From an uncultured virus (IMG/VR IMGVR_UViG_3300021255_003627) (Duplodnaviria; Heunggongvirae; Uroviricota; Caudoviricetes), in IMG/VR virus record IMGVR_UViG_3300021255_003627: a DNA stretch of 20,000 nt; one strand, given 5' to 3'. Under the pieces are notes generated by a model that saw only the letters and a program-made list of their open reading frames with translations, made no database searches and was not told the origin of the DNA. The number at the start of each line of letters is the position of its first letter. The first letter of the stretch is position 1. The translations under genes were made by a program, and so were the position numbers. Positions 849 to 19,313 of this stretch are shown piece after piece.

Positions 849-1157
849 TTAGAAAAACGGATTGTTTGACAAAGAATCAATTATGGTTTGATACTTTTGG
901 CATGTCTCTTGAAAATCGTTTACATCGTCATGGCATAAGTCAAACCATTCCCCGTTAATCCTTGAGGAGTTGAACCGATTGTGAAGCATTGTTTCAAGTT
1001 TAAATGGCTTATCGGTCTCAAAGTTGTCCTTTAAGTAGATGACGGAAGAGTTGCCAGTTTGCAACTGCTTGATTCGTTTGCCGATGTCCGATGAATTGGT
1101 TGAACCAATTTTATATCCTTCTCGCCCCATCTCTTTAAGAAGATAAACGTATCCCAT
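849..1157 (-). CDS. GIY-YIG superfamily (T5orf172-like) protein
   Basis: GYVYLL...YKIGST...KRIKQLQTGN...LETMLH...GEWF pattern typical of T5orf172/MUG113 domains. Confidence 0.85.
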   Translation of the reverse strand: MGYVYLLKEMGREGYKIGSTNSSDIGKRIKQLQTGNSSVIYLKDNFETDKPFKLETMLHNRFNSSRINGEWFDLCHDDVNDFQETCQKYQTIIDSLSNNPFF

Positions 1158-1277: not shown

Positions 1278-2060
1278 ATGAAGAAAATTATTTTTATGCT
1301 TTTTGTGGCTATGTTTAGTACAGAAAGTTTTTGCCAAACTGAACCAGATTTTGCAATGGAACCACACGTTTTTAACTTCGCAGACTCCACCTTTGAGGTA
1401 CCCCTACCTTGTGAGAGGACCTATGTGCGTGGAAAGGCTGACGCCTCATTGTATATTTTTGGTGTAGGAAAAACTAGTGTTTATCGTTACATTGATGGAG
1501 AAAAATCACCTTTAGAGATTGACAAAAACGTTAGTGGCATTATCATCAATACAGACGGTGAATCACCAGTACACACCCTTTCCATCAACAAACTTGAAAT
1601 ACTAAAGACAAAACGAAGATGGAAAACTCATGAAAGTGGCACTTTTACGGGGTCGTCATACGGTACAGATGCCTCTGTTGGGTTGAAGTATAAGAAATAT
1701 GGCAAGAATTCCGTTATCATCAAAACTTCTGATTTGTCACCAGGGGAATATTGTATTACTGCTATCAACATCAAAACTACCACAAACAATTTTAAAGCAT
1801 TCACATTCAGAGTTAAAGGTGTAATCATAGATACCTACGAGAAATATTATGTTCGAGTTGTTGGAGGAAAAGGCGAAACTCTTCATATCCACAACACATC
1901 GGGTGACCTCATCCAAACCATTGACATTAAAACTGACGACGAGCGATTTAGACCCAAATTAAAGAAGAAAAATTCTTACATTTTAAAAGTTGGGTCGTCA
2001 GAAGAAAAAATTTCAATTGATAGGAATGGTTTTGTTTCAATTGACACTTCGTTTTTGTGA
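1278..2060 (+). CDS. Secreted hypothetical protein
   Basis: 260 aa ORF with signal peptide MKKIIFMLFVAMFSTESFC, beta-rich sequence, downstream of a promoter. Confidence 0.75.
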   Translation: MKKIIFMLFVAMFSTESFCQTEPDFAMEPHVFNFADSTFEVPLPCERTYVRGKADASLYIFGVGKTSVYRYIDGEKSPLEIDKNVSGIIINTDGESPVHTLSINKLEILKTKRRWKTHESGTFTGSSYGTDASVGLKYKKYGKNSVIIKTSDLSPGEYCITAINIKTTTNNFKAFTFRVKGVIIDTYEKYYVRVVGGKGETLHIHNTSGDLIQTIDIKTDDERFRPKLKKKNSYILKVGSSEEKISIDRNGFVSIDTSFL

Positions 2061-2110
2061 TACCACAAAGAATTGTAAAACATTTGAATAATTTTTAATA
2101 TATTTATTTT

Positions 2111-2281
2111 ATGTACACAATTATTTGTTTAATCATTTTTTTTGGAATGTTTGTGGCAGTGAATGTGCCAAAACCTTGTACCGAAGAGACAAAAAAATCT
2201 TTGATTCCAGTCTTCCTCGTCGCGTTGATTGTTTCAGTTTTGATTGACATGTTTATTTTTCTACTTTGCTACGTTTTTTGA
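2111..2281 (+). CDS. Small two-TM membrane protein (56 aa, not in ORF track)
   Basis: MYTIICLIIFFGMFVAVNVPKPCTEETKKSLIPVFLVALIVSVLIDMFIFLLCYVF; two hydrophobic segments; stop is 2 nt before the rtcB ATG. Confidence 0.6.
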   Translation: MYTIICLIIFFGMFVAVNVPKPCTEETKKSLIPVFLVALIVSVLIDMFIFLLCYVF

Positions 2282-2283
2282 TT

Positions 2284-2820
2284 ATGATTGAAATTAAAGG
2301 AAAACATTGTAAGGATTTGAAAATCTTTACTGACAATATAGAGGAAACGGCTTTATCCACTTTATACAAAGTGGCAGATGAAGTTCCGTATGAGAACACT
2401 AAAATACGAATCATGCCAGACGTACATCAAGGCGTTGGCAACACAGTTATTGGTTTTTCTTGTCCTATTGACCTCGAAAACGGTTATGTATCGGTACAAG
2501 CGGTTGGGTGCGATTTAGGCTGTTCGGTAAGTGCTTGGTTTTATGAGAAGCCGATTTCAGACGACAAGATACAAGAGTTTGAGCACAAAATCCGAAAGGT
2601 CATACCGTTTGGTTTTAACATCAATCAGAAAAGCAAGGTTGATGTGAAGTGCCTAATCAAGGAAATAAACAAGTCAATACAACGCATTGTGTCAAGACAT
2701 CCGATTCTCTCTGATTATTCGATTGAGTTCAAGAGTGAGAGAGACCTTGAAAAATGGTGTGATAGGATTGGTATGGACTATGGTGTATTCCTAAAATCCA
2801 TCGGAACTGTTGGCGGTGGT
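2284..2820 (+). CDS. rtcB: RtcB 3'-phosphate/5'-OH RNA ligase, exon 1
   Basis: IRIMPDVHQG, AVGCDLGC and SIGTVGGG motifs; ends immediately before the conserved NH. Confidence 0.95.
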
Positions 2821-3728
2821 GAAACGATTGCCACCGTGTGAGTTAATAGCTCACAGTAGTTAAATTCGTCCAAATCGGTGGAGCCTGTGACGGTAATACC
2901 GAGGGAAGTGCTCTGACAATAGTCAACACCCCGTAACGAGCGGAGGGACTTGAAATGTCGTTTTAAATAGGCATAAGGTGCGCTCTGAACTATAGAGAAA
3001 AAGAATCTATAGAGAATGTCAGAAATGAGCATTCCAATTAATATTGAAAATGACCACTTCTTCATTATTATTTATAATATATAAGTAATAATATGTTGAA
3101 TAAAGACAAGAGTTATATTTTTGGTATTTTAATAACAGATGGTAGTTTATATTTAACCACTAGAAATAGGGGGAAAGTAACATTAGAAATCTCTAAAAAA
3201 GACGAAGATTTAGTTGATAAATTAATCAAATTAGTTCCGTTTTCGACTAAAAGTACTAGAACTAGAAAAACTAATTTTTGCGCAAGTGGTACTGACTTTG
3301 TTTCTTTTAAAAATTATAGGAGAGAATTTAGAGAAAATCTAATTGAGAATGGCTTCCCAACAAAAAATAAAGCAATAAACGCATCAACTCCTTCTGAAGA
3401 ATATGATGAAGTTTCTTTTTGGAGAGGCGTTATTGATGGGGATGGAAGTATAGGCGTGACTAATAAAAACGAGCCATTTGTTTCTCTAGTTACAAAAAGT
3501 GAAAATCTTAAAAATAAATACTTAGAATTTTTACACAAAAATTTTGGAATAGCCAAAAATGTAAACAAGAACAAAAGAGACAATGTATACAATATTGTTG
3601 TAAAAAATAAAAACGCTAGAGACTTAGTTGATTTACTATACAACAATAAAGAAATACATCTTAATCGTAAATATGATAAAGCAATGTTTATCCTTGAAAA
3701 TTTTCAATATTAATTAGTAACAAATTTG
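2821..3728 (+). ncRNA. Group I self-splicing intron in rtcB (908 nt)
   Basis: Exon ends in U and intron ends in G. P1 CGGTGGT(2814-2820)/GCCACCG(2830-2836) with U.G at the splice site. P10 GATT/AATC. P4 TCGGTG/TACCGA. P7 ACGAGCG(2936-2942)/CGCTCT(2981-2986). Removal restores in-frame GGGNHY. Confidence 0.93.
3093..3713 (+). CDS. Intron-encoded two-motif LAGLIDADG homing endonuclease
   Basis: YIFGILITDGS and FWRGVIDGDGS motifs, C-terminal LYxxxxxxLxRK; lies in the 3' (P9) region of the intron; AT-rich. Confidence 0.93.
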   Translation: MLNKDKSYIFGILITDGSLYLTTRNRGKVTLEISKKDEDLVDKLIKLVPFSTKSTRTRKTNFCASGTDFVSFKNYRREFRENLIENGFPTKNKAINASTPSEEYDEVSFWRGVIDGDGSIGVTNKNEPFVSLVTKSENLKNKYLEFLHKNFGIAKNVNKNKRDNVYNIVVKNKNARDLVDLLYNNKEIHLNRKYDKAMFILENFQY

Positions 3729-4517
3729 AATCATTACGTTGAATATGATGTAAACGAAGAGTTAGGAAAATATTGTATTTGTGTGCATTGTGGTTCTAGA
3801 AACTTGGGTCAAAAGGTCTTTAAGTATTGGGATAAGATTGCAAAAACCATGTGCATTTCAAAGGATGAAATGAGGGCAATTACTGATGGGGTGAAGGCGA
3901 CAGTGAAAGATAAGACCATCCTTTCGAAAGCAATAAAGGAAGCAAGGGAGGAATATCTTAAGGGTAGGATACCAAACTTCTTAAATGGGGAAAACATGTA
4001 CAAGTACTTGATGGATGTGGCAGTTGCCCAAACATATGCAAGAATTAATCACGAGACGATTCAAGAACAAATATCAGAAATTTATATGTTTTTGTCGAAG
4101 GGTGCAAAGGTTGTAGATAAAATCTACACCACCCACAATTATGTTGACTTAGGTGATATGGTTCTGAGAAAAGGCGCAGTTCGTTCATATATCGGAGAGA
4201 GGCTGATTATTCCTTTTAACATGCGAGATGGTATAGGAATATTTGAGGGAAAATCAAATGAGGATTGGAACTGTACAGCCCCGCATGGATGTGGAAGGCT
4301 TTACAGCAGAAGTAAGGCAAAAGAGCAGCTTAGCGTGGAAAACTTTAAGACAGAAATGGCTGCGGCTGGAATATACACAACCACAGCAGATGCCTCCACT
4401 TTGGATGAGGCACCTCAAGCCTACAAGTCTTATGAAGAGATTTTGGAGTTGATTGAGCCTACAGTTAATGTGCTCTATCTGATGAAACCAAAAATCAATA
4501 TCAAGGCATCGGAATAG
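3729..4517 (+). CDS. rtcB: RtcB exon 2 (spliced product about 441 aa)
   Basis: NHYVE, VHCGSRNLG, THNY, LRKGA, IIPFNM, TAPHGCGR, DEAPQAYK and C-terminal NIKA motifs. Confidence 0.95.
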   Translation, partial: NHYVEYDVNEELGKYCICVHCGSRNLGQKVFKYWDKIAKTMCISKDEMRAITDGVKATVKDKTILSKAIKEAREEYLKGRIPNFLNGENMYKYLMDVAVAQTYARINHETIQEQISEIYMFLSKGAKVVDKIYTTHNYVDLGDMVLRKGAVRSYIGERLIIPFNMRDGIGIFEGKSNEDWNCTAPHGCGRLYSRSKAKEQLSVENFKTEMAAAGIYTTTADASTLDEAPQAYKSYEEILELIEPTVNVLYLMKPKINIKASE

Positions 4518-5332: not shown

Positions 5333-5743
5333 ATGATTTATTCTGAAGTAATTGGTCGGCTAGGTGCTGACTCTGAATTGAAAACATCAAAAAACGGAAA
5401 CAAGTTTGTATCCATGAGAGTGGCCACAAATGACTATGTAAACAACGAGAACGTGACCACGTGGGTAAATGTTATGTGGAGTGGCGATAGGGCCGTAAAA
5501 ATGCAAGAACACCTAAAAAAGGGTAACTCGGTAAGTGTTCGCGGAGTGCTTAGAACCACTATGTACAAGACGAGGAACAATGAGGATGCCGTGTCGCTTG
5601 ACATTTTTGCCGATAGGGTTGATTTTGTTGGCGGCGGAAGTGGAAACACACAGTCGAATGCAGAATCTGAGGCACCAAAGACGAACACAAAGGCTGAGGT
5701 TGCCGATACGAGTACGACTACTGTTGACGATTTACCATTCTAA
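5333..5743 (+). CDS. ssb: Single-stranded DNA-binding protein
   Basis: IGRLGAD, VATN, TTW, LKKG..V.V.G OB-fold motifs and acidic C-terminal DDLPF. Confidence 0.95.
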   Translation: MIYSEVIGRLGADSELKTSKNGNKFVSMRVATNDYVNNENVTTWVNVMWSGDRAVKMQEHLKKGNSVSVRGVLRTTMYKTRNNEDAVSLDIFADRVDFVGGGSGNTQSNAESEAPKTNTKAEVADTSTTTVDDLPF

Positions 5744-5818: not shown

Positions 5819-5850
5819 TCTCCAAGCCGTTTTGCGACTTGGAGAGATTT
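5819..5850 (+). terminator. Stem-loop, probable terminator after ssb
   Basis: TCTCCAAG(5819-5826)/CTTGGAGA(5838-5845); U-tract is weak. Confidence 0.45.
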
Positions 5851-5901
5851 GTATGTGGCCGAGGAATTGCGACACCAAATGTCTAAAAAAAGTTAAAAGA
5901 T

Positions 5902-5932
5902 TTTGCCAACTAATCTTTTTTCCATATATTTG
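5902..5932 (+). promoter_or_regulatory. Bacteroidetes sigma-A type promoter
   Basis: TTTG(5902-5905)-N19-TATATTTG(5925-5932). Confidence 0.75.
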
Positions 5933-5966
5933 CAAGGAAACATTTACAATAAACATAAAAGCAAAT

Positions 5967-7202
5967 ATGAGTAAAGAAATGCAAATGGAGTTCGTTAAGA
6001 CAGTGTCCAATGAAAATGAACCGACAATGACACATGAAGTACATGAAGGAACACAGATAACAGAAGCGCCTAAAACAACTAGTGTGCGAGTGTTAGGCGA
6101 TGATGGCTCGGTTAACGTCGCTTCCCTAACCACAGACAAGCGAGCATATTACCACGAGATTAGTAAAGTTCTTGATGAAAAGGACTTGACTTCTGTAACA
6201 ACCTATGGCTCTGACTTGCAACGCGCAATGGGCAACTACTCAAATGTTTTCCTAAAGCAATCGTTTAATTCCGAAAACGGGGTTGAAACAACACAACTGA
6301 TTTCAAATTTGCTCGGTGAGTTGCATGAGGTCAACATTGACGACCTTGAGGCACCGAACGCTTGGAAAAGGTTCTTGGCTAAGGTTCCAGGTGTTAGGAA
6401 ACTTATAGTGAGCGTTGAGCAAATCAAGGCGAAATATAACACCATTGAGAAGAATATTGATTCAATTGTTGGTAAACTTGAGGCTAGCCGTCAGATTGCG
6501 TTACGAGACAACAACCTATTGCAGAAACAGTTTGAGGACAACTGTGATTACGTTGACCAACTCGAAGACCTCATTGTTGCTGGAAAAATTAAATCCGAGG
6601 AACTAGGTGCAAGAATCGGAAGCATGAAAGCGAACCGAGACTTGCATGAGGACTATGAGATTGGTGACATTGAGGAGTATAAAAATTCGCTCGACAAGCG
6701 TTTGAACGATTTGTGCCTCCTTCGTCATGCATTCAAACAGTCGCTAACGCAAATCCGCATCATTCAGCGGACAAACATGATGAATGCCAACAATACCGAG
6801 ACACAGATTGCAATGACAATTCCAGTATGGAAAAACCAATTGTCCCTCGCAGTTGCTCTGTATGACCAAAAAAAGGCACTTGAAGTTTCAAGTAAAGTTT
6901 CAGAAACAACAAATAAGATACTTCTTAAAAACAGCGAGATGATGAAGACCCAAGCCATTGAGGTGGCAAAACAATCTCAGCGTTCCGTCATCGACATTGA
7001 CACATTGCGCAAGACCACACAAGACCTTCTTGAAACGGTCGAGGGTGTTCAGCGAGCAAATGAGGAAGGTGCTAAGAGACGTGCAGAGGCTGAGGTGGAA
7101 CTCAGAAGGCTTGAACACGAAATGACCAAGTCGGCAGTAGGCGTCAATAATACGACGCAACGCATTGTTGCCAAGGAACTTAAGAGAATAGAGCAACATT
7201 AA
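5967..7202 (+). CDS. telA: Toxic anion (tellurite) resistance protein, TelA/KlaA family
   Basis: Coiled-coil protein with YGSDLQ, KYNTIEKNIDSI, QIRIIQ..N, TIPVWKNQL and VIDIDTL motifs. Start placed at the ATG after the promoter. Confidence 0.88.
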   Translation: MSKEMQMEFVKTVSNENEPTMTHEVHEGTQITEAPKTTSVRVLGDDGSVNVASLTTDKRAYYHEISKVLDEKDLTSVTTYGSDLQRAMGNYSNVFLKQSFNSENGVETTQLISNLLGELHEVNIDDLEAPNAWKRFLAKVPGVRKLIVSVEQIKAKYNTIEKNIDSIVGKLEASRQIALRDNNLLQKQFEDNCDYVDQLEDLIVAGKIKSEELGARIGSMKANRDLHEDYEIGDIEEYKNSLDKRLNDLCLLRHAFKQSLTQIRIIQRTNMMNANNTETQIAMTIPVWKNQLSLAVALYDQKKALEVSSKVSETTNKILLKNSEMMKTQAIEVAKQSQRSVIDIDTLRKTTQDLLETVEGVQRANEEGAKRRAEAEVELRRLEHEMTKSAVGVNNTTQRIVAKELKRIEQH

Positions 7203-12192: not shown

Positions 12193-12264
12193 GGTTTTGT
12201 TAGTTCAAAAGAAGAACGTGAGATTGTGGCTCTCAAGACGGTGGAGCGTTACCACCACAAAACC
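12193..12264 (+). tRNA. trnH: tRNA-His(GUG) with non-canonical D and T loops
   Basis: G-1:C73; acceptor GTTTTGT/ACAAAAC; D-arm GTTC-AAAAGAA-GAAC; anticodon arm TGAGA-TTGTGGC-TCTCA; T-arm GGTGG-AGCGTTA-CCACC; all four stems fully paired. Confidence 0.85.
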
Positions 12265-12323
12265 CTATGATGATTAACTTTGGTATATAATTACCTTGAT
12301 TTTGAAAATAATAGATGTCAAAA

Positions 12324-12679: not shown

Positions 12680-13735
12680 ATGAAAAGACTAATTATTTTT
12701 ATGTTTGCACTTGTCAGTGCAGTTGTTGGTGTAAAGGCACAAACTACAATTGAGGAAGGAAAGTTGTTTGACAACATGCATATTACGATTCAAGGCGGCG
12801 TGTCAACCCCACTCAAACTTAGTTCTGTCTTCCCGATTAACCCTTCGGCAACTATTGCTGTAGGTAAGTGGTTCACTCCCGTGTTTGGCGCTGAAGTTGA
12901 GGGCACCGCTTGGTTTGGTAGTGTTGATTCGGATGGACATTGGGATTGGGATGGAACGGCCCACAATTTTGTTCGTGGTTCTTATGTTGGAGTCAACGGT
13001 TTGACAAACCTCACAAACCTTTTGTGTGGTTATAATGGAAAACCTAGGGCGTTTGAAGTCGGTACACAAATTGGTCTTGGTTGGTGCCATCGTTACACTC
13101 CTAATAACGCTGACAAAAACCGTAATGGTGTTGGTGTGAAGACTGGTCTTGACCTCGCATTCAACCTTGGAAGCAAGAAGGCTCATACGCTTAGTATACG
13201 CCCAGCGGTTCTTTGGGAGATTGCAAACCATTGGAATAAGGTTCAGTTCAATAGGAACAAGGCACAACTGTATCTCGGTGTTGCCTATACCTACCATTTT
13301 AAGAACAGCAATGGAACCCATTATTTTAAGACGCATGATATTGGTGAACTGAATGCACGAATCAACTACCTAAAGGGTCGTCTTGATGAGTGTGAAGGCA
13401 GAGAACCTAAGGTCGTTGAAAGGGTCGTAGAAAAGACCGTCAATGTTGTCACGGATAGAACTTGGGTCGTTCAGTTTGCCAAAAATTCGTATGAACTTAC
13501 CGACGAAGCGAAGAAGGTGCTTGATGCAATCAAGGCAAACGAGGTGGTTGACATAGTTGGAACCGCATCTCCAGAGGGTGAAATGGAACACAATAAGCGT
13601 TTGTCAGAGCAACGAGCTGCCAATGTAGCCGATTATCTTTCCAAGCGCGGCGTAAAAATCAACTCTTGGGGTGGCAAGGGTGTGATGATTGGAGAATCTA
13701 CGAACAGACTTGCCATTGTTACGGTTTCCGAATAA
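12680..13735 (+). CDS. OmpA-family outer membrane protein
   Basis: Signal peptide, beta-barrel with VGKWFTPVFG, coiled linker, C-terminal OmpA_C motifs VQFAKNS, GTASPEG and N..LSEQRA..V..YL. Confidence 0.92.
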   Translation: MKRLIIFMFALVSAVVGVKAQTTIEEGKLFDNMHITIQGGVSTPLKLSSVFPINPSATIAVGKWFTPVFGAEVEGTAWFGSVDSDGHWDWDGTAHNFVRGSYVGVNGLTNLTNLLCGYNGKPRAFEVGTQIGLGWCHRYTPNNADKNRNGVGVKTGLDLAFNLGSKKAHTLSIRPAVLWEIANHWNKVQFNRNKAQLYLGVAYTYHFKNSNGTHYFKTHDIGELNARINYLKGRLDECEGREPKVVERVVEKTVNVVTDRTWVVQFAKNSYELTDEAKKVLDAIKANEVVDIVGTASPEGEMEHNKRLSEQRAANVADYLSKRGVKINSWGGKGVMIGESTNRLAIVTVSE

Positions 13736-16850: not shown

Positions 16851-17420
16851 ATGAATTTTAACACAAAAGAATACGAAGGTTCAATACTTAAACGTATTGA
16901 CGCCTCTATGAACGAGACGATGGAGAGTCTTTCCAAGTGTGCAAAAACTATTAGCGAGGAAGGGGATAAAACAATAGAAATTCTCATTGAAGAGTCTAGT
17001 CTTAAAGTAGTCCTTGGTGCGCTTAAACTGATTAAGTCAGAACTTATAAGGGCATCCAATATCAACCACAACACAAACAAAGATTACCTTAACACTAACG
17101 TCGAGGAAGTTAAGGTTATGCTTAAACTCGCTAGCGACCATAAAGAAGCGATGGAAGCCTACAAAAAGGCGAACAACGAAGAATTATACGGGAAGGAGGA
17201 GGCAGAACTTGAGGTTATTGAGGCTTTTACCCCAAAGCAGCCGACAAATGAGGAAATTATAGCATTCACCAAAGAAGTCATCGATGAGTACCTATCAACA
17301 AAGGAGGACGGCTACACCCTAACAATTAGGGATATGGGTCAAATTGTCCCGAAGGTAAAGGAAAAATACCCTAACGTCGACGGAAACTTGATTAAAAACA
17401 CTTTAATTGGGAAAAGTTAG
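16851..17420 (+). CDS. yqeY: GatB/YqeY-domain protein
   Basis: LKLIKSEL, EAYKKANNEELYGKEEAELEVIEAFTPKQ and DMGQIV match the YqeY pattern; extra N-terminal segment. Confidence 0.8.
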   Translation: MNFNTKEYEGSILKRIDASMNETMESLSKCAKTISEEGDKTIEILIEESSLKVVLGALKLIKSELIRASNINHNTNKDYLNTNVEEVKVMLKLASDHKEAMEAYKKANNEELYGKEEAELEVIEAFTPKQPTNEEIIAFTKEVIDEYLSTKEDGYTLTIRDMGQIVPKVKEKYPNVDGNLIKNTLIGKS

Positions 17421-17521: not shown

Positions 17522-17632
17522 ATGACACAAGAAGAAAGAGAAAAAAAGAGACAAGAAACTCTTAGAAAGATGAGAATGTATGGACTACACGCAAGTGAGG
17601 TAGATATTTTGGAAGAAGCGGGAGAATTATGA
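17522..17632 (+). CDS. Small hypothetical protein (36 aa)
   Basis: MTQEEREKKRQETLRKMRMYGLHASEVDILEEAGEL; ATGA overlap with the next gene. Confidence 0.45.
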   Translation: MTQEEREKKRQETLRKMRMYGLHASEVDILEEAGEL

Positions 17633-18141
17633 AACAAGAAGATAAAGAACTTTCATTTATAGATATTAGCGGAAGATTACATTATGGTGTTATAGTCAAT
17701 TATAAAGAAAATGAGTATGACCACCGTGAATGGAAAATTACTACTCTGCACACTCTTAGCTATAGCCAAAGTGGTACTCTAATAGATACAGACTATGATG
17801 GTTGGATTAGTTATGAAGAACACGAAGGATGCGGTATGTCAACTGGTTCAAGACCTTTCCGTTTAGGAGAAGTTCTTCCCTATCTCCGTCCAATGTCTTC
17901 TATGACTGAGGAAGAATGGGAAGAATTAAACTGCATTGGCTACATTGTTCCTTTATATGATGGATGTTTTGGTGTAGATATAAGAGCATATTTAAAAAAT
18001 AATCAGCCGCACTATAGGAGATTTAGTGAATTTTCTACAATAGAGGATTGGTTCAATGCTCATCACTTCGATTATCGCGGACTCATCGAAAAGGGACTTG
18101 CATTGGAAGCACTAGAAGGAATGTATAATATAATAAAATAG
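17629..18141 (+). CDS. Hypothetical phage protein, YLRPMSSMTEEE family, copy 1
   Basis: Paralog of 18828-19313. Confidence 0.8.
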   Translation: MKQEDKELSFIDISGRLHYGVIVNYKENEYDHREWKITTLHTLSYSQSGTLIDTDYDGWISYEEHEGCGMSTGSRPFRLGEVLPYLRPMSSMTEEEWEELNCIGYIVPLYDGCFGVDIRAYLKNNQPHYRRFSEFSTIEDWFNAHHFDYRGLIEKGLALEALEGMYNIIK

Positions 18142-18797: not shown

Positions 18798-18819
18798 ACG
18801 TGGTTGTACACATTATTTT
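18752..18819 (+). repeat. Tandem duplication, 2 x 34 bp
   Basis: TACTGTATGTAAACGTGGTTGT(C/A)CACATTATTTT at 18752-18785 and 18786-18819, one mismatch. Confidence 0.95.
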
Positions 18820-18827
18820 GGAAAATT

Positions 18828-19313
18828 ATGACACAAGAAGAAAAATCATTGCTACTTCAAGACCTTTGCGGAAGGTTGCCTTATGGGGTAATTGTTAGAC
18901 ACGCCGACCCACTTATTGACAATGATGGCAATGAGACTGGTGAGTTTTGGCATAAAAGGGGATACTTATGTGACGTTACTACATTGGATGATATGACCAC
19001 TACAATAATTGAAAGTGAAGGCAGTGATGAAGAGGGATATGAACATATATGTTTTTTGGAAAGGACTCTGCCATATCTCAGACCAATGTCTTCTATGACA
19101 GAAGAAGAAAAGAAAGAGTTATTGCAAATATCAAATTTTATCTCTGATATTGATGATGATTTTATATATCTTATTGAAAGAGCTTTAATTGATATAGTTG
19201 ACATTGTAAATTTTATCAATTGGCTCAATGCTCATCATTTTGATTATCGCAATCTTATAGAGCGTGGCTTAGCCATTGAAGTAACAGAAGAAAATAACCC
19301 ATATAAAGAATAA
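18828..19313 (+). CDS. Hypothetical phage protein, YLRPMSSMTEEE family, copy 2
   Basis: Shares GRLxYGVIV, PYLRPMSSMTEEE and NAHHFDYRxLIExGLA with 17629-18141. Confidence 0.8.
   Translation: MTQEEKSLLLQDLCGRLPYGVIVRHADPLIDNDGNETGEFWHKRGYLCDVTTLDDMTTTIIESEGSDEEGYEHICFLERTLPYLRPMSSMTEEEKKELLQISNFISDIDDDFIYLIERALIDIVDIVNFINWLNAHHFDYRNLIERGLAIEVTEENNPYKE

Follow-up and report, generated by a model that had tools for sequence, protein, structure and literature searches.

A probable mobile group I intron with a LAGLIDADG endonuclease gene at the GGG/NH site of rtcB in a ruminant-gut phage

The gene coding for the RNA ligase RtcB is broken into two pieces in the virus record IMGVR_UViG_3300021255_003627, of which a stretch of 20,000 nt (hereafter the window) was analysed. 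The pieces are separated by 908 nt that contain an open reading frame (ORF) for a homing endonuclease, and the break falls among the most conserved catalytic codons of the gene. This raises the question of what the inserted segment is, and whether a complete enzyme can still be made. The evidence set out below points to a mobile group I intron, lodged within the GGG/NH motif of the rtcB gene of a large ruminant-gut phage, a reading to which we assign a probability of about 0.88. The segments concerned are:

2284..2820, + strand: rtcB exon 1, 179 codons, final codons GGC GGT GGT; Pfam RtcB 8.9e-10; phrog_1075 profile positions 57-205
2821..3728, + strand: group I intron, 908 nt, terminal G at 3728
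3093..3713, + strand: LAGLIDADG homing endonuclease gene, 206 amino acids (aa), two motifs; Pfam LAGLIDADG_3 1.9e-13 and LAGLIDADG_1 4.3e-05; phrog_4645 7e-24
3729..4517, + strand: rtcB exon 2, opening AAT CAT TAC (N-H-Y); Pfam RtcB 2e-35; phrog_1075 profile positions 206-443; RtcB chains of the PDB, E ~3e-06

As read from the sequence, the break lies at 2820/3729 on the + strand, after the third Gly codon of GGGNH and before its Asn and His codons (GGC GGT GGT at 2812-2820; AAT CAT TAC at 3729-3737). It is a clean one: the N half stops at position 205 of the phrog_1075 profile ('tRNA splicing ligase') and the C half restarts at 206. Uninterrupted rtcB genes, with the two halves abutting, were found in all four close viral-contig relatives (L001-L004; contigs of 127-412 kb), where the junction DNA reads GGT/AATCA at locus positions 4000/4001 and the tblastn alignment of exon 1 stops exactly there. 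Removal of 2821-3728 in silico restored GGGNHY, as proposed in an earlier reading of this DNA made by a model from the letters and their ORFs (the sequence-only reading), and gave an ORF of 441 aa with no internal stops that aligned end to end with its relatives (positions 1-441; 59% identity to L001, 51% to L002 and 45% to L003). The joined product is a full-length RtcB with its metal-binding and guanylylation motifs: PD.H at 45, GCD..C at 75, GGGNH at 177, H.GSR at 199, THN at 314 and PHG.GR at 364. The roles of these motifs in catalysis (metal binding and guanylylation) we take to be those described in the literature on the P. horikoshii and E. coli enzymes.

One alternative is that there is no intron at all, and that the insert is either an intein or a free-standing endonuclease cassette placed between two gene halves. 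The exon 1 frame, when read into the insert, meets a stop at 2841; the insert is therefore out of frame and an intein was ruled out. A group II intron was also ruled out, since the insert has no reverse transcriptase and a group I fold was established, as described below.

The window, whole or in part, was found in 20 DNA sequencing runs from 11 studies of sheep, goat and bovine gut metagenomes. The contigs of four runs (X2, X4, X7 and X21) were compared with the window; those of the DNA run X7 gave no match to it. Both states of the rtcB site were present in run X4, from sheep gut: one 79-nt contig (record 7) lacked the intron, with 2784-2820 joined straight to exon 2, and two contigs (records 6 and 8) carried it and spanned the two junctions (2784-2855 and 3531-3770). 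Intron-plus and precisely intron-less alleles are thus shown to coexist in nature, which supports the mobility claimed by the sequence-only reading. The X4 junction is a polymorphism of DNA, not evidence of splicing. In run X2 the intron was present with no listed difference over 2821-3728, and nine differences were listed in exon 1; that is, the intron was more uniform than the exons, as expected after a recent spread. Both marks of a homing intron were therefore found: the element is precisely present or absent among alleles, and its endonuclease gene is intact. The intron-less X4 allele differed from the window at only 2 of 67 flanking bases, and at 4 of the first 12 bases of exon 2 (window 3729-3740; N-H-Y kept, V changed to C). 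The differences in exon 2 could reflect a co-conversion tract or divergence of the target site.

As Rfam was silent on the window, the case for a group I intron was built from structure and comparison. The insert shows the complete group I layout, with P1, P2, a P3/P7 pseudoknot around P4-P6 and P8, P9.0, P9, P9.1, P10 and a terminal G; the 7-bp P1 with its splice-site U.G, the 4-bp P10, P4, P7 and the terminal G listed by the sequence-only reading were all present. Its elements are the following (A3 and A7 are alignments described further on; percentages are of alignment cells paired):

2814-2820 (exon) with 2830-2836 (internal guide), +: P1, 7 bp, splice-site pair U2820.G2830; 2 of 7 pairs covary (C-G/U-A; U-A/A-U) in A3 and A7
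2826..2829, +: intron strand of P10, GAUU, pairing with exon 2 bases 3729-3732 (AAUC), 4 bp
2837..2855, +: P2 hairpin, conserved UAAU in the loop; 6 of 6 pairs with compensatory changes
2865..2871, +: 5′ strand of P3 (partner 2946-2954, 2-nt bulge), then J3/4 AAA at 2872-2874; pseudoknot with P7; 96-98% paired, 1-2 of 7 pairs covary
2875..2902, +: P4 (2875-2880/2897-2902) and P5 (2883-2885/2892-2894), with an A-rich internal loop
2903..2932, +: P6/P6a/P6b; 85-89% paired, 3-4 of 6 pairs covary
2938..2942, +: 5′ strand of P7 (partner 2981-2985); 100% paired, 3 of 5 pairs covary; matches P7 of the Rfam model RF00028 via the homolog L022
2946..2954, +: 3′ strand of P3; covariation on A3 and A7
2955..2974, +: P8 hairpin, then J8/7 at 2975-2980; 100% paired, 3-4 of 5 pairs covary
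2981..2985, +: 3′ strand of P7; covariation on A3 and A7
2988..2989, +: 5′ strand of P9.0, partner 3726-3727 just before the terminal G
2990..3012, +: P9 hairpin; 100% paired, 6 of 7 pairs covary
3014..3034, +: P9.1 hairpin, GAAA tetraloop at 3022-3025; 99% paired, 7 of 8 pairs covary
3036..3051 (5′ strand) and 3700..3715 (3′ strand), +: P9.2, a perfect 16-bp inverted repeat/helix from which the endonuclease ORF is looped out; the 3′ strand overlaps the ORF end
3717..3728, +: conserved 3′ tail GUAACAA..G, finishing in the terminal G

The splice-site U.G of P1 was kept in 9 of 9 sequences of A3 and 11 of 12 of A7. The covarying pairs of P1 involve wobble bases of the Gly codons in the exon, and the cyanobacterial copies of the intron (see below) show a third pair type, G-C. 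P10 reaches 5 bp (UGAUU/AAUCA) in most relatives. The four columns of the P9.1 loop were invariant in A3 and A7 (9 and 12 rows), and GAAA was present in 12 of 12 rows of A5, an alignment made with a covariance model. The terminal G (G3728 in the window) and the GTAACAA of the tail were each found in 11 of 11 introns. By these assignments the endonuclease ORF is shown to occupy the loop that P9.2, the last helix, closes, away from the core; where relatives lack the ORF, P9.2 is simply a short hairpin. The G+C content was 0.43-0.52 in the core vs 0.20-0.38 in the ORF part, and the 5′ 288 nt of the intron folded with a z of -4.9, none of 200 shuffles being equally stable.

By eye, the GUAACAA tail (3717-3728) was also seen in ORF-less and cyanobacterial copies, and two registers are conceivable for a pairing between this tail and the J2/3 segment (2856-2864). 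An AT-rich hairpin of 13 bp (3064-3092; 92% complementary) extends up to the start codon of the endonuclease gene, an ATG, and might limit translation of the endonuclease.

The intron core was detected by blastn directly upstream of the endonuclease in nine loci, with 69-77% identity to the window. A same-site rtcB intron was present in 12 loci, near-duplicates included, the exon reading GGNGGNGGT, the intron closing in TAACAA..G and the second exon opening in AAYCAY. Two plain MAFFT alignments, not fitted to structure, were used to score a hand-drawn model of 60 pairs in 10 helices, the controls being models with the 3′ partners slid, plus 500 shuffles. In A3 (nine sequences) 96.4% of cells were paired vs 37-42% in the slid controls, and 35 of the 60 pairs had changed on both sides; in A7 (12 sequences) the corresponding values were 96.0%, 37-41% and 36 of 60. 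None of the 500 shuffles scored as high on either alignment. None of the 10 helices was without a compensatory pair (on A3 each had two or more), and P2, P9 and P9.1 covaried at almost all positions. RNAalifold, which cannot draw a pseudoknot, independently yielded P1, P4, P5, P7, part of P8, P9 and P9.1, with 24 of its 48 pairs compensatory. The sequence of P9.2 differs in every intron, and the helix always extends from the end of P9.1 to the conserved GUAAC; anchored in this way it measured 6-17 bp in 11 of 11 introns, against a mean of 3.2 and a maximum of 7 over 110 non-cognate pairings. The P9.0 pair 2989/3726 was A-U in six of the 11 introns, U-A in three, G-C in one and broken in one. 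Together, these results show that the fold of the intron is maintained by compensatory changes across the same-site family.

The same results bear on the possibility of an endonuclease cassette between two gene halves. The endonuclease lineage does occur free-standing beside rtcB in other contigs, as such a cassette would, but here 272 nt of conserved, covarying RNA structure lie upstream of the ORF and the boundaries are set exactly by P1, P10, P9.0 and the terminal G. Unless all the alignments were artefactual, the covariation refutes the absence of an intron, and this alternative, cassette or intein, is hardly tenable.

Several observations weigh against a group I intron that splices in this phage. 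The curated model RF00028 (Intron_gpI) gave no match to the window, either at its gathering score or at E ≤ 10 (2700-3850, and the 291-nt core 2805-3095), and it missed 9 of 10 viral same-site relatives, four further members and eight cyanobacterial copies. No RNA run was among the runs with the stretch, and the RNA run X21 gave no contig match. P10 has just 4 bp in the window, and its exon strand is invariant, which makes covariation impossible; the broken P9.0 pair mentioned above is that of L027. When the pairing of P9.2 was tested with RNAduplex against shuffles, unanchored, two introns alone stood out significantly, those of the window (z -5.0) and L007 (z -5.7), and the z values of the remaining nine ranged from +0.8 to -2.0. 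P6 and P2 were just 85-92% paired on the MAFFT alignments, in part through misalignment. Further, the hand model has its origin in the window's own sequence, which favours it over the slid controls, and kinship among sequences can beat shuffles without any structure. Nevertheless, the slid controls together with the replacements seen helix by helix are hard to explain other than by a real fold.

The silence of Rfam was put in context by R1, a covariance model made from the window's intron family, which found three more divergent same-site introns: L022 (75.7 bits), L023 and L027 (47 bits). RF00028 did recognize L022, at the same rtcB site, with 68.4 bits (gathering score 50; E 2.6e-15), and the helices that it annotates there correspond to those assigned in the window. 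The window element thus shares its insertion site with a homolog that is a certified group I intron. The scan with group I covariance models suggested by the sequence-only reading thus failed for the window itself and succeeded for its same-site relative. RF00028 detected 1 of 23 family elements scanned; the helices and their order are alike in the model and in the window (via the L022 alignment), but the window sub-family is missed even at E = 10 and falls in a blind spot. The standard Rfam model therefore overlooks an entire sub-family of group I introns of bacteria and phages, and as a consequence annotation pipelines call rtcB as two fragments, as in published jumbo-phage tables.

The ORF in P9.2 agrees with the LAGLIDADG gene claimed by the sequence-only reading, as its Pfam match and two motifs indicate. 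It is intact in the window: it has all 31 columns that are invariant in the endonuclease alignment A2, with D16 G17 and D115 G116 falling in the two LAGLIDADG motifs. A large protein collection contained 155 homologs, and an alignment of 31 endonuclease homologs, used as query, identified 76 viral loci. In 27 of the 34 closest loci (L005-L038) rtcB lay no more than 2.5 kb away. About 14 of these had an intact rtcB with a free-standing endonuclease just upstream, downstream or divergent (L011, L015/16, L024, L025, L026, L028-L031, L033-L036 and L038); the rtcB junction was read directly in six of them, and Rfam found no intron in the free-standing loci. L022 shows yet another arrangement, its endonuclease gene (2501-3061, + strand) being antisense to both the intron (2376-3443, - strand) and rtcB. 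In-frame stops or frame breaks were found in the endonuclease copies of L008, L017, L035 and L036. In a quick maximum-likelihood tree with midpoint root, supported by the Shimodaira-Hasegawa-like approximate likelihood ratio test only, intronic and free-standing copies were intermixed, and well-supported branches force at least three switches between the two states; the intronic L020 and the free-standing L030, for example, are sisters with a support of 96. According to a published idea, an endonuclease that stands free and is already adapted to the insertion site of an intron comes to be encoded by that intron (PMC3984707), and the series of endonuclease states fits it.

Relatives of the endonuclease without rtcB nearby were seen in L017, L018, L019, L037 and L008, where the neighbours are genes for a calcineurin-like phosphoesterase, an RNA ligase or an RlaP-like protein, which are other RNA-repair genes.

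The degenerate copies, together with the lack of an RNA signal for splicing and a core that Rfam does not recognize, are what might be expected if the insert were a decayed relic that no longer splices, with rtcB then either a pseudogene or expressed as two polypeptides that come together; for the C half, a start at the TTG of 3726 is conceivable. In the window, however, both exons are open and conserved with all motifs kept, and all helices are intact and under compensatory evolution in the family. In addition, the intron was identical in another metagenome though the exons differed, and a break within GGG/NH would sever the active site of a two-part enzyme. We regard such a relic as improbable. 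With a functional mobile intron, the pre-mRNA would be expected to self-splice by a guanosine-initiated, two-step transesterification that restores the 441-aa RtcB. The LAGLIDADG enzyme would cut intron-less rtcB at or near GGT/AAT, and repair of the cut would copy the intron in, which is homing.

The range of the family was examined in viral contigs and in bacterial genome contigs, with a motif pattern followed by the R1 model. The viral scan gave 50 matches, namely nine contigs already known, 29 new members and 12 non-members; the latter had no model match at E ≤ 1 and were about as many as expected by chance, by our own estimate. Twenty-seven of the 29 new members are ORF-less introns of ~250 nt at the same rtcB site, in contigs of 148-401 kb (for instance L083, 1450-1700, where P9.2 is a simple hairpin). 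Another, L082, carries the endonuclease, and L104 has the same ribozyme family (1451-1700; 159 bits) in a different gene, for which no Pfam or PHROG match was found. After the L104 intron, on the opposite strand, lies a gene for a GIY-YIG/HNH-type endonuclease (1749-3083).

In several of the large contigs that have the ORF-less intron, namely L084 (306-1039) and similar loci (among them L083, L090 and L105), the N half of rtcB was also broken by ~0.9 kb. This extra break matches an RtcB fragment of 506 aa with an intein that is listed in table S4 of PMC12880540, so that the L084-type rtcB genes appear, by sequence, to carry both an intein and a group I intron.

The bacterial scan gave at least 120 matches, of which 80 were examined, so the cellular count is a lower bound. 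Eight of the 80 were true members (173-185 bits) and 72 had no match to the model. All eight lie at the GGG/NH site of a chromosomal rtcB (L139, L146, L164, L172, L173, L181, L182 and L208). Seven are in records titled as filamentous cyanobacteria, including Anabaena cylindrica, Nostoc spongiaeforme and metagenome-assembled genomes of Stigonema, Microseira, Symplocastrum and Rhizonema, and L146 is titled 'uncultured bacterium'. The bacterial inserts measure ~237-1054 nt; three have an endonuclease (40-43% identity), and others retain just its first codons, which suggests decay. A blastn search of 50,697 phage records gave no match to the whole locus, and with the core alone short chance matches only (best E 0.07).

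The survey of phage rtcB alleles proposed by the sequence-only reading thus turned up intron-bearing, ORF-less and empty sites. Among related genomes the rtcB site was found empty, with an ORF-less intron, with an endonuclease-bearing intron and with a degenerate one, and such a set of states at one site is the pattern of a selfish homing element. This bears on a further suggestion of the sequence-only reading: that splicing acts as a regulatory device, in which the availability of guanosine or GTP gates a GTP-dependent ligase and so RNA repair. Such gating finds a hint only in the coincidence that guanosine nucleotides take part in both reactions. No data pointed to regulation; the site shows the full cycle of a selfish element, and relatives do without the intron (L001-L004, the X4 allele and a 440-aa unsplit RtcB of the Jug phages, which are jumbo gut phages of Bacteroides/Phocaeicola). 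Insertion in catalytic codons is moreover a general habit of homing elements (PMC2814812). The gating suggestion was therefore abandoned as very improbable. The position of the intron in the most conserved catalytic codons would then reflect the choice of target by the endonuclease rather than regulation of RtcB. On the best reading, the insert is a group I intron of the ordinary selfish, homing sort, phenotypically neutral because it is spliced out.

A wider proposition, which we consider evenly balanced between true and false, is that homing has long been concentrated at the GGG/NH codons of rtcB, a hot spot that unrelated hosts share. One Rfam-invisible ribozyme family would occupy the site in gut and rumen contigs of jumbo-phage size and in chromosomes of filamentous cyanobacteria, and one LAGLIDADG lineage would have moved repeatedly between a free-standing place beside an intact rtcB and the P9.2 loop, in the sense and once in the antisense orientation. 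If so, the site would offer a natural series for testing how an ORF-less ribozyme and a free-standing, pre-adapted endonuclease come to form a mobile intron. The ORF-less, endonuclease-bearing, antisense, degenerate, empty and neighbouring free-standing states form a series that bears on the origin of mobile introns and on crossing between phages and cells.

The intron of the phage T4 nrdD gene (sunY) encodes the endonuclease I-TevII. As in the window, the endonuclease ORF lies 3′ of the catalytic core, and a long-range pairing brings back the 3′ splice site; the T4 intron differs in its endonuclease family, its host gene and its core, which is unrelated in sequence. Archaeal RtcB is known to carry an intein. 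RtcB inteins resemble the window element in being selfish elements in a catalytic motif of RtcB with a LAGLIDADG-type endonuclease. They differ in that they splice at the protein level, are in frame and occupy another motif, near the Asp-x-His/Cys site.

Collaborative homing, in which a free-standing endonuclease and an ORF-less intron share one site, has been described for cyanophage psbA and F-CphI (PMC3984707; PMC6083498). Here too a free-standing endonuclease stands beside a gene whose conserved site has an ORF-less intron in other genomes. In contrast to psbA/F-CphI, a single LAGLIDADG lineage spans free-standing, intronic sense, intronic antisense and degenerate states. The endonuclease gp210 of phage PhiPA3 (PMC11620839) is likewise encoded by an intron in an essential gene of a jumbo phage; a role in competition was shown there, whereas the finding here is the coexistence of intron-plus and intron-less alleles.

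Of 139 Jug-phage genomes, 136 contain group I introns, 2513 in all, and metatranscriptome reads back 37 of the 76 introns predicted (PMC12880540). Its main text, as far as considered, names terL, nrdD and DNA polymerase as hosts and never RtcB. In table S4, however, N fragments of RtcB end in GGGE followed by a stop, C fragments start with a translated intron tail and then NHF, unsplit RtcB has 439-440 aa, and the intein-bearing form of 506 aa matches PI-PfuI. The exon translations of L083 and similar ORF-less introns match the Jug-phage RtcB sequences of that table. The Jug phages are thus like the window phage in being large gut phages with group I introns in essential genes and an rtcB broken at the same point. 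Judged from look-alikes in IMG/VR, their rtcB introns are of the ~250-nt ORF-less form, whereas the window has a LAGLIDADG gene and comes from ruminant samples.

No description of rtcB as a host of group I introns was found in the open-access literature, and none in the parts considered of PMC3984707, PMC7824862, PMC5871332, PMC8421152 and PMC11835236. The first of these, which reviewed the introns of bacteria in 2014, gives flagellin, recA and nrdE as protein-coding hosts, and in its text as considered 'RtcB' occurs 0 times. The view of the sequence-only reading that rtcB was not a well-described host thus holds as regards published descriptions, but the novelty is reduced, since rtcB is already broken at this site in table S4 of PMC12880540. 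In sum, rtcB is a new host gene for a known kind of mobile group I intron, an RNA-repair ligase being added to the genes that group I introns have invaded, and there is no sign of a new mechanism.

The rtcB gene sits in an RNA-repair/tRNA neighbourhood of the window, the other features of which are:

3-842: Rnl-type RNA ligase gene, its 5′ end cut by the window
849-1157, - strand: T5orf172/MUG113 (GIY-YIG-like) gene
5333-5743: SSB gene
5832-7202: TelA gene
12194-12265: tRNA-His(GTG)
12680-13735: gene for an OmpA-like protein
16851-17420: gene for a YqeY-like protein

Two further genes, at 17629-18141 and 18804-19313, are paralogous (38% identity; E 2e-24), match phrog_10841 weakly and have the motif LPYLRPMSSMTEEE in common.

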